This document shows positions 6,801 through 9,800 of a DNA stretch of 64,000 nucleotides, piece after piece; position 1 is the stretch's first letter; each line of letters starts with the position of its first letter. The notes beneath the pieces are model-generated. The model was not told the DNA's origin, did not search any database, and saw only the letters and a list, made by a program, of their open reading frames with translations. Source of the DNA: Amoebidium appalachense (taxonomy: Eukaryota > Protista > Ichthyosporea); assembly GCA_963693365.1 (NCBI GenBank), contig CAVNZM010000016.1, positions 4,583,149-4,647,148 on the forward strand, in the 5' to 3' direction. Both the position numbers and the translations under genes were made by a program.

Positions 6801-9800
6801 ACACACACACACACACACACACACACAAGCCACACGCATGCACGCACACACACACACACACACACACACACACAGCCACACAGCCACATGCACGCACGCA
6901 CACATACACACACGACATACACACACGCGTGCACACACACTATTGCCACCACCACCACCACTACCATCACCACCATAACCACTACCATTACGATTACCAC
7001 ACACAATGAGCATACAAACAAGACATAGACAAAAGCTCGCACACACATCCTGTCAACTCCTTTTTTCTGTGACTTCCAACCACATGCCTCCTCCCTACCC
7101 TAGAAGACAAGCTAGCGGTTTGCGGAAGCCGAAACAGGGGAATGTCACGAATCAGGAACACACACACAAACATGTCGTGTGTGTGTGTGTGTGTGTGTGT
7201 TGAAGGGGGGGGGGGGGGGGCGGCGCATATGGGAGGAAGCACCAAAGAGCCTTGGTACCGAGGGCAGATAGTCAGATTTTTTCCTTTACTCTTCCTCTCT
7301 ACGTGTCAAATTTTATACTTTCGCAGATCACCGTTGATAAGATACAGTTATGCTCTCCTGGGTTATAATTTATTGGAGTGAATGGGTTGAAGTGCTACTG
7401 TTCTTACCCGCGCCCCTCTCCTGCCTGCAGGCACCAGGCCTGGGCCGACGTCAGATCTCCAACAGCAAACTGAGCATCATCCCATCGGCTGGGTCTGGCC
7501 TGGGCTCCGGCCTTGTCCCGGTATTTATTCTTTTATCCAATTCGTGTGATTGGTTGGTGGTGGTTGTCCGTCTTTTATTTGTTTTACTCGATATGTGCGT
7601 GTGTCTTTAAACGTTAAAGTGTTTGGTTGACGGTCCGTATGGGCTTATGGCTCCGTTCAAGCTTTGTGTGCTGATTACGGTTTTTAATCTCAAAAAAAAA
7701 AAAAATACAGGGGCAGGGAGAGGAAGGGAGGGGAGGAGGGGGAGGAGGGGGGGAGTAGAATGTGTGTCACAGAGTACATATTTCCCATTCACGAAAAACA
7801 ACACAAAGCAAATCGTAAGAAAAGAAAGAGAGAAATGAGAAAAATGACACCATTCGTAAAGCCCATTCTCAGGGAGGGAGATGGAATTTAATCTTGTATC
7901 AAATGACAGAGGTGGTTTTTTACTTTGTGTAGTCTTACGGTACAGTGTGAGTTTCTTGCTCATATTTAGACTCATGTTAATGTTGCGAGTTGAATCTCCG
8001 AACTGACTTCTTGTTCGTGTTTTGTTTACAGGGGCGGGTAGCTCATGACAAGAGGACGCGGGAAAAGGGTACGTAAAAGCCATTGTGAATACTCCCGTGT
8101 GTGAGGCCTCGTGTACCCCACGTACTCTCGCAAGGGTGTCATCATCTTCGGGATGTGTTGTTTGTTTGGTTTATGACACCGTAGTCGGTTGTTTATGTTC
8201 TTGTACAAAAGGTTTGTGTTGCATCGTCACACGGCCATGTGTGGGTTTTTTTTTTTTTTTTTTTTTTTTTTTTTGGGGGGGGGGGGGGGGGGGGGGGGGG
8301 GAGGGGGGGGGGGGGCTTGCCTAACTTTGGCGCTGTTGATTTTGGGGAATGTGGTTTTCGTGCTACATTAGGCCTGCACAAGTCTTGCTCTCATGTGTGC
8401 ACACATTGAAAAAGTTTCTATTTTCTCCTCTGTTACCCTTGACCAATAAGGAACAAAAAATATTTTGGTATACATGTGTCTTCTCTTCACTCTAATGCCG
8501 AATTGGTCTGACCGATTTTCTTTTGGATTGTCATTCATGAAAGTCTGTGATAGTCATTCACGTTCACTTGAATCCAATACCCATTAGATCTGACCGTTTT
8601 TTTTTCTCCCCACCGGCAGCCATTGCCGAGGAAGAGCATAAGACGGCAGAGACTGACAAGGCCGCTCTGGACCGGCACACCACCGTCTCAACCGAGATTC
8701 TTTCTCAGGGCAGCACCCCAGTGTCTCAGAAGAGCTCCCTTGCTAGTCTGGGTATTGACCCCCCCCCCCCAACACACACACACATACACCACCACCACCA
8801 ATTCTTGTGATGTTTTTTTTATTATTATTTTGTCCTTTGGTGACTCCTCTATATTTTGAACCTTCTAATGCATACATCCCCCCCCTCCCCCCCCCCCCCC
8901 CTAAGCAACCCTGCTCGTCTTTGATCAAGACGGGTTGACCCACCCAAGTTCAGTTGATGCTGCTGTCTGAGTTGGAGCGTCGTATATACGCGGGCTAAGG
9001 GGTCGAAACTCAGACGCAATTGATGACTTGGGCCCTCCCTGAGGATGGGCTCTGCTTATGACGCATACTGTGCGCATGGCTGATGCTGCATAGTTGAATG
9101 TTTGCCTTTGCATGTGTCCTGCACCATGCTTCTCATCGTGTATGCGTACTTCGTACTGTGTTCCGCATTCAAACCCCCCCTGTCTTCTTTCAGAGGTGTC
9201 CTTTCAGGACAGACCACTGTGTGGAGACATCTTTACTTCCATGCAACCGGGCATGGTTGCTCTGTGTCGTGCATCTGTAAGCACACGCGTTTGTCGCTGC
9301 ACTGCATTAGTTTGCACACACATCTTCACCGTTTTGCTCACCTTGCTTGCATAAGCAACCCTGCTCGTCTTTGATCAAGACGGGTTGACCCACCCAAGTT
9401 CAGTTGATGCTGCTGTCTGAGTTGGAGCGTCGTATATACGCGGGCTAAGGGGTCGAAACTCAGACGCAATTGATGACTTGGGCCCTCCCTGAGGATGGGC
9501 TCTGCTTATGACGCATACTGTGCGCATGGCTGATGCTGCATAGTTGAATGTTTGCCTTTGCATGTGTCCTGCACCATGCTTCTCATCGTGTATGCGTACT
9601 TCGTACTGTGTTCCGCATTCAAACCCCCCCCCCCTTCCTTGTCTTTGTGTGTGCTGTGCAACTTCAGCATTGTGTTGTCCGTCGTGAATGTGTACTTCGA
9701 CCTTTGTAACACATTCTTACCCCCACTTACCCCCTTCCCCCTCTCCCCACTGGTGTCGTATACAAGCGAATGGGTCGAACCTCGAATACCGTGGATGACT

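Follow-up and report, generated by a model that had tools for sequence, protein, structure and literature searches.

A 64,000-nucleotide (nt) stretch of the Amoebidium appalachense genome (Ichthyosporea; contig CAVNZM010000016.1, forward-strand positions 4,583,149 to 4,647,148 of assembly GCA_963693365.1), referred to below as the window, contains a mobile repeat in which the conserved parts of a hammerhead ribozyme follow one another in an order foreign to type I, II and III hammerheads. The locus raises the question of whether these parts can assemble into a hammerhead, and by what path the RNA chain would then run through the core. The answer proposed here, which we regard as probable on balance, is a predicted non-circular hammerhead whose core is split between A9 and G10.1, which is carried by a non-autonomous Naiad-type retroposon and which is likely cut as a strand-swapped pair.

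The three conserved blocks are named S, G and C after Eckert et al. 2023 (PMC10085705), according to whom natural RNAs with the orders SGC and CSG cleave in vitro. Type I, II and III hammerheads have the cyclic block order C-G-S, whereas the order observed here is S-G-C, with GUU (8971-8973), GAAA (from 9005) and CUGAGGA (from 9039) accompanied by stems I and III in seven copies. The segments noted in a preliminary description made from the sequence alone (8965-8977, 9000-9015 and 9035-9052) were all recovered as given there, with exact or near copies elsewhere. The block-C 14-mer CTGANGATGGGCTC has 15 matches in the window at up to one mismatch, compared with a shuffle mean of 0.03, and a descriptor that places the cleavage site before GAAA and GAAA before CUGANGA, and that asks for a stem I of at least 3 base pairs (bp) and a stem III of at least 4 bp, has eight matches, seven of which have a stem III of at least 7 bp; none of that strength was obtained in 100 dinucleotide shuffles. 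The scrambled order is real, and stems I and III are borne out both by the descriptor and by pair changes, including the proposed stem I covariation (pair 3 is A-U in subfamily A and G-C in subfamily B) and one two-sided change in stem III in the subfamily alignment. The invariant core (CUGANGA, GAAA and an NUH site, here GUU) is intact in six complete copies, and the stems abut it with 3–4 bp in stem I, 5–6 bp in stem II (using the detached strand described below) and 7–12 bp in stem III.

Standard descriptors miss the motif, as had been anticipated: a scan of the window against Rfam, ranked by E-value, has no hammerhead family among its best 150 of 188 matches, nearly all of which are low-complexity microRNA noise. 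A covariance model built from ten copies, which match it by construction, has 19 window matches at E≤1, 15 of these below 1e-4. A "fossil" reported at 42311-42330 on the minus strand, said to vary only at the free N7 position, does exist as a decayed block C at 42312-42325 (−), where it is found by the block-C matches, but it fails as evidence for selection on the core, because it is one of several decayed copies and seven of 20 loose block-C anchors (up to four mismatches) break invariant core letters, while a single anchor changes N7 alone. Two of the seven core-breaking anchors (35488 and 36530) are probably chance matches.

Stem II is where the motif departs from expectation. The pairing first proposed, of GGGUC in block G with GGCUC following CUGAGGA, was not confirmed: its outer pair is unpaired in four of eight rows and its energy is −3.5 and −2.2 kcal/mol in subfamilies A and B respectively. 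An upstream strand at 8937-8941 (+), with G10.1 at 8937, forms five Watson-Crick pairs with 9000-9004 in all four distinct rows that have both sides, carries a two-sided change (C-G in subfamily A, U-A in subfamily B) and reaches −7.1 and −5.4 kcal/mol in A and B, about 3 kcal/mol stronger than the earlier pairing. Variants in Logan contigs bear on the same helix in a subfamily B copy, in which 30729 T>C and the change at its stem II partner, 30783 A>G, stand at matched depth in X5 (9467 vs 8826, in 87 vs 89 contigs) and in X14 (1419 vs 1434). Stem II probably uses this fourth strand, which lies outside the segments first described, and the core then likely has an opening, between A9 and G10.1, through which two additional helices, IV and V, would enter. 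With the stem II strand upstream, the motif would span about 8902-9058 and would not be a plain SGC ribozyme; in type-SGC the stem II strand directly follows CUGAnGA, and here pairing and alignment favour the upstream strand instead. A plain type-SGC fold, in which 9000-9004 would pair with the strand right after CUGAGGA across an insert of 1–2 nt and 8937-8941 would be a competitor or off-switch, is improbable in our view: five to six pairs including G-U can be drawn in subfamily A and four in B, its innermost pair has changed on both sides in one decayed copy and SGC ribozymes do cleave in vitro (PMC10085705), but the pairing is the weaker one in both subfamilies, has the broken outer pair noted above and competes with helix IV.

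The full fold (helices IV, V, detached II, P0, III and I) is very probably real, and its predicted order is IV, hairpin V, II', P0, III with the UH site, I, linker, II with GAAA, III, P0, I' with CUGAGGA, and IV. On the plus strand of the copy at 8902, the 5' strand of helix IV (8902-8911) would close the motif, 8902-8907 pairing with 9053-9058 and 8909-8911 with 9047-9049, and would enter the core after A9. Hairpin V (8913-8935), of 8 bp with a palindromic 6-mer in its loop, separates helix IV from G10.1. Next after the detached stem II strand comes the 5' strand of P0 (8943-8948, pairing with 9027-9032), a 6-bp helix that joins stems I and II on their far sides, has one two-sided change and is weak in subfamily B. 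Block S (8965-8977, +) comprises the stem III 5' strand (8965-8971), U16.1 (8972), U8973 as H17 and the stem I 5' strand (8974-8977); the cut is predicted directly after U8973, and after U30760 in the subfamily B copy. A linker (8978-8999) connects stem I to block G (9000-9015), which is made up of the stem II 3' strand (9000-9004, with C11.1 at 9004), GAAA (9005-9008) and the stem III 3' strand (9009-9015). The following segment, 9016-9032, consists of the non-bulged strand of a predicted kink-turn (9016-9026) and the 3' strand of P0 (9027-9032), and the last, 9035-9058, of the stem I 3' strand (9035-9038), CUGAGGA (9039-9045), the spacer U9046 and the helix IV 3' strand (9047-9058).

A kink-turn consists of a canonical helix, a 3-nt bulge and tandem G-A/A-G pairs. 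The one predicted here, from a comparison by eye with the kink-turn consensus, has its bulged strand at 8950-8958 (+) and would combine a 3-bp canonical helix (8950-8952 with 9024-9026), a bulge at 8953-8955 and the pairs G8956-A9023 and A8957-G9022. The pattern is present in subfamilies A and B and in a decayed C copy, with a canonical helix probability of only 0.03–0.31. Both subfamilies also retain two palindromes, one of 10 nt in the linker that runs from stem I to stem II, where their sequences differ, and one of 6 nt in loop V.

In the alignment of nine distinct rows (A1), 93.7% of cells pair under the full model, compared with 32–48% in controls with slid partners, and two-sided changes occur once each in stems I, II, III and P0, with a fifth in misaligned end columns. 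In subfamily A, ViennaRNA supports the outer part of helix IV (pair probability 0.83–1.0, with about 0.3 for the inner 3 bp), hairpin V, P0 and stem III. A full descriptor made of stem I, detached stem II, stem III and P0 fits the six complete copies in the window and none of 251 motif-selected loci from pattern scans of viral sequences (16 loci, a further viral scan giving none), metagenomes (at least 115) and prokaryote genomes (120, from 21 of 64 parts scanned). A blastn search of the element against the 115 metagenome loci gave no match. Five of the metagenome loci (L050, L057, L069, L101 and L102) are ordinary Penelope-type or tandem hammerhead-like repeats, of a type with a core, a bulged U, a stem II hairpin and GAAA, and are not relatives of the element.

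The same fold is found, by eye, at the 3' ends of Naiads, a group of Penelope-like elements (PLEs). Naiads are described as being without canonical hammerheads, and core and half-core motifs, the halves 35–50 nt apart on either side, have been flagged in them (Craig 2021, PMC8557442). The supplement of that paper was searched for short motifs and the passages retrieved were read by eye. Ten Naiad consensus records, from seven distinct families, have the split form with the same helix order, IV-V-II'-P0-III-I-II-GAAA-III-P0-I'-CUGANGA-IV, and these records end with it; in the window's repeat the motif lies near the 3' end. Six of the ten precede the headers Mley, Aacu, Anas, 1_Movir, Ovul and Omin, which by file order makes them Bfor, Amil, Aacu, Anas, Obim and Ovul. 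Their detached stem II is 4–6 bp long, begins with G-C and differs in sequence between families. The first and last four letters of hairpin V are common to the window, Bfor (a ctenophore) and the coral Naiads, and octopus records have the kink-turn pattern between stem III and P0; one coral record has mismatches in stems I and II.

These records bear on two of the alternatives. In six of the seven families, which have the same surrounding helices, the strand after CUGANGA has no G10.1 and cannot pair with C11.1 even when a 2-nt insert is allowed, so that plain type-SGC folding is impossible there, while the octopus Naiads do allow 2 bp. That the likeness arose by chance in a young repeat, with helices that are artefacts of a few diverged copies, is very improbable and already largely refuted: the covariation comes from two subfamilies only and there is no Rfam support among the matches listed, but the counts of 0 in 100 shuffles and 0 in 251 motif-selected loci stand against it, as does the recurrence of one six-helix order in unrelated Naiad sequences. 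A closing hairpin of 9047-9052 with 9030-9035, corresponding to a joining helix of the kind seen by Eckert et al., was also considered and was dropped once P0 and helix IV were seen to fit the Naiads.

Eight further Naiad records are, by eye, clean type-CSG (1_Nbra, 2_Nbra, 3_Nbra, Hpol and Smim by file order, and three more), which brings the Naiads with the split or CSG form to at least 18 of 54, a lower bound because motifs broken by line ends were missed. Outside these 18, one record resembles a true type-SGC, with a stem I of 8 bp, a stem III of 9 bp, a long joining helix and an imperfect stem II. Two other records share a different structured and conserved 3' motif with neither CUGANGA nor GAAA, possibly another ribozyme or a scaffold, whose opening 10 letters recur where hairpin V ends in subfamily B. 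Beyond the canonical ones listed by the authors, no passage from Chlamys, the companion PLE group, had the split or CSG form among the matches listed; one Chlamys passage with GAAAC after a local hairpin was rejected for its lack of CUGANGA.

The S-G-C order, though correctly recognised in the preliminary description, is not new in itself, since it has been published as type-SGC (PMC10085705). In the same work, SGC ribozymes come almost only from metatranscriptomes and none from the genome of a known organism, CSG comprises two sequences from soil metagenome DNA, CUGAnGA and the stem II strand are assumed to be separated by at most 1–2 nt, and SGC and CSG RNAs with linkers of 0–2 nt cleave during transcription. 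The window motif resembles type-SGC (HRIMA-1 and variants) in block order, in having stems I and II joined by a linker on one side and a helix on the other, and in the unexplained way in which that joining helix links directly to stem III at its far end. It differs in that SGC keeps CUGAnGA joined to the stem II strand, whereas here that strand would stand upstream of block S, with two helices entering at 9/10.1, and in that it sits in a high-copy genomic retroposon. With type-CSG it shares the order II'-P0-S-G and the same P0 helix; in CSG, however, stem I' and CUGAnGA stand right before II', whereas here both have shifted to the 3' end and would be reconnected through helix IV. The split-core layout appears to lie outside the six permutations of Eckert et al.

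Circularly permuted type I repeats are similar in their short tandem non-coding units, the U after A9, the G10.1-C11.1 pair, their palindromic elements and the dimeric cleavage and tandem-transcript processing proposed for them; they differ in having a tiny stem III, whereas the window motif combines a non-circular order with a long stem III and a core that is likely split. Non-long terminal repeat (non-LTR) retrozymes have circular RNA and carry in each tandem unit a type I hammerhead, which the window motif is not. In PLE hammerheads one base bulges out at the step from position 9 to 10.1; they work as dimers in tandem repeats, have been proposed to process precursor RNA and in minimal form cleave poorly in vitro (PMC4209133). 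Neither a hammerhead split at 9/10.1 nor permuted hammerheads in Naiads were found described in the non-subscription literature searched; PMC13725137, PMC10162972, PMC6155905 and PMC3088659, in the passages searched, mention only core insertions of 1–2 nt or, unspecifically, variants with extra helices, and a 2026 bioRxiv preprint on retrozymes uses type I descriptors only.

The carrier is a high-copy, poly-C-flanked, 5'-truncated and tandem-forming non-coding retroposon, likely of the non-autonomous, Naiad-type Penelope-like kind, and the preliminary description was right to place hammerhead parts in non-circular order inside a mobile, Penelope-related repeat. The copies have their 3' end in common, and in 12 of the 12 that extend to it a C run comes next (background 0.038); 5' truncation points are scattered, with copies usually preceded by C-rich tracts. 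A 5'-truncated, pseudo-LTR-like upstream copy of subfamily A with C runs at its flanks (8902-9180, +) precedes a full 450-nt unit (9181-9630, +), which has a second complete motif at 9352-9508; the head-to-tail joint of this subfamily is found in four of four sequencing runs examined and stands in DNA runs too. A further complete subfamily A motif, 91% identical to the copy at 8902, lies at 61333-61506 (+), and complete subfamily B motifs are located at 30039-30206 (+, within an element at 29715-30274), 30691-30858 (+, the copy with the predicted cut after U30760) and 35907-36074 (−). There are also two 5'-truncated B copies: one at 58609-58790 (+) has blocks S, G and C and is without the detached stem II strand, and one at 14188-14353 (+) starts at the second base past the predicted cut, which is weak evidence for cutting because it is one of about ten 5' ends. 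In one sequencing run, possibly the window's own source, 10,077 contigs align on subfamily B.

Partial tandem arrangement of the pseudo-LTR type, a fixed 3' end, 5' truncation and microsatellite flanks are all present and give the anatomy of a non-autonomous PLE. Naiad and Chlamys PLEs have the same pseudo-LTR partial tandems, 5' truncation, microsatellite targeting and non-autonomous derivatives, and the Naiads share the want of a canonical hammerhead alongside unexplained core halves, with the fold common to ten records. The window element differs from Naiads in having neither an open reading frame nor a reverse transcriptase (RT) in the frames scanned, and probably in a host outside animals. 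Membership of the Naiad clade would show in a 3' end held in common with an autonomous element that encodes N-terminal GIY-YIG, CxC and RT. With no RT in the window frames, the clade cannot be assigned by RT; what the motif shares with Naiad 3' untranslated regions is the ribozyme fold, seen by eye, which is not a published criterion of the clade. Older decayed relatives with the same 3' end before poly-C lie at 38741-38868 (−), 51547-51631 (−), 35692-35744 (−), 7835-7911 (−), 9747-9847 (+), 60814-60941 (+) and 47892-48046 (−), and point to several past waves of activity.

How such a chain could work as a hammerhead may be pictured as follows. Position 9/10.1 would tolerate an exit of the backbone, which is plausible because PLE hammerheads normally bulge a single base there (PMC4209133), so that helices IV and V could enter at this point while the G10.1-C11.1 pair still caps the core. 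P0 would hold stems I and II together at their outer ends and would take the part of the contact between loops I and II. P0 would also be continuous with stem III through the predicted kink-turn, and one molecule could then not satisfy all helices; in a rod model, a 48–61 Å gap remains in the monomer when the kink-turn is formed, with a 15-bp arm in both subfamilies. This strain therefore favours a strand-swapped pair: one unit would contribute II' and CUGAGGA, and a second, for instance its neighbour in a head-to-tail transcript, would supply the cleavage site and the GAAA with which they pair. The kink-turn and the palindromic loops together suggest cleavage as such a dimer, an assembly that had already been raised in the preliminary description and is a live option. 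If tandem or read-through transcripts were cut after U8973, RNA of unit length would be set free, and this RNA might be reverse-transcribed in trans by the enzyme of an autonomous element and inserted at (C)n tracts.

Given the fold, we would expect cleavage with good confidence, and given cleavage we lean slightly towards the dimer. Cutting by a single molecule, the kink-turn being open or a switch and the palindromes incidental, is somewhat unlikely. With the kink-turn unzipped, the single strands do span the gap (42 Å needed and 82 Å reached in subfamily A, 53 and 58 Å in B), short-arm cases such as the octopus records close to about 24–36 Å and, as noted, SGC and CSG RNAs with 0–2 nt linkers cleave during transcription (PMC10085705); yet both subfamilies, different as their sequences are, keep the kink-turn pattern and a 15-bp arm, the gap persists whenever the kink-turn is formed, and the 10-nt and 6-nt palindromes are likewise kept in both. 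A fold that is real and cuts little or not at all, serving as a hammerhead-derived 3' scaffold for a Penelope RT or an L7Ae-family protein with the core letters purely structural, is rather unlikely. It would account for the short stem I, the U at H17, the interrupted core and a cut-site start in only one of about ten 5' truncations, and accords with the poor cleavage of minimal PLE hammerheads (PMC4209133). Against this scaffold role, ctenophore, cnidarian, crustacean-range and octopus records and the window alike preserve every catalytic letter and a legal NUH site while the stems differ entirely, and sister Naiads carry CSG, a form that cleaves (PMC10085705). A bolder form of the split-core, strand-swapped reading, held only tentatively, is a fourth-strand hammerhead in which the two-helix insertion at A9/G10.1 and the kink-turn would restrict cleavage to dimers and so sense tandem arrangement, and which would be the missing Naiad ribozyme, here in a unicellular holozoan outside animals.

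Several points weigh against the proposed split-core hammerhead and its carrier. The number of two-sided pairs in the alignment is reached by 73 of 500 shuffles, and there is about one covariation event per stem because the window alignment rests on two subfamilies. In subfamily B, ViennaRNA gives hairpin V a probability of 0.24–0.37 and P0 one of 0.02–0.09. Stem I is short, at 3–4 bp and only 2 bp in Naiad_Bfor, and U at H17 makes a weaker hammerhead cleavage site. The Logan contig variants are unphased, and X5 may be the window's own source; X11 has 30783 A>G without 30729 T>C, its coverage of 30729 being about tenfold lower, and the G>C variants seen at 30813-30815 would disrupt P0. The absence of variants in the core is not significant, since 26 of 366 positions vary and 14 positions would be spared with a chance of about 0.36. 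The Naiad folds were read from passages by eye rather than computed, and the rod model is crude, with a monomer that closes if the kink-turn unzips. As for the carrier, Chlamys is reported to target (C)n and (CA)n, and Naiads (TA)n (Craig 2021, PMC8557442), so that the (C)n flanks of the element match the Chlamys target and not that of Naiads; no RT or endonuclease was found in 167 window frames (30 and 137, chosen by length and complexity), and no autonomous partner in these frames, which lie within the window only.

The surroundings of the element include a gene encoding a kinase-PP2C fusion, with exons at 55206-63721 (+; Pkinase at 55206-55631 and PP2C at 63299-63721). Several element copies, including the complete one at 61333, lie between its exons on the same strand, and an active ribozyme could therefore cut the pre-mRNA. 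A kinase exon is 98% identical to one EukProt protein, whose best other match of 47 is CFRG3992T1 at 42%, the rest being at 37% or less with no full-length animal match. CFRG is the prefix of the ichthyosporean Creolimax, so that this one gene suggests an ichthyosporean host, probably a unicellular holozoan. An exon at 10688-12085 (+) encodes F-G-rich and Thr/Ser-rich repeats that resemble an FG nucleoporin and has no Pfam match, and long coiled-coil exons (P0001) at 43529-47679 (−) have no homologue at E≤0.001.

If the split-core fold holds, it would break the stated rule that CUGAnGA and stem II stay together and would add a hammerhead topology beyond the six of Eckert et al. It bears on the open puzzle of Naiads that are without canonical hammerheads and yet carry unexplained core halves 35–50 nt apart, and would place non-circular hammerheads in a genome with a likely function, the processing of Penelope-like transcripts. 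A strand-swapped dimer, if correct, would also account for a linker of zero length, which Eckert et al. were unable to square with the crystal structure. Together with the CSG Naiads, the split form would show how non-circular RNA permutations interconvert in tandem retroelements, and its apparent occurrence in a single-celled relative of animals would raise either pre-animal ancestry or horizontal transfer.

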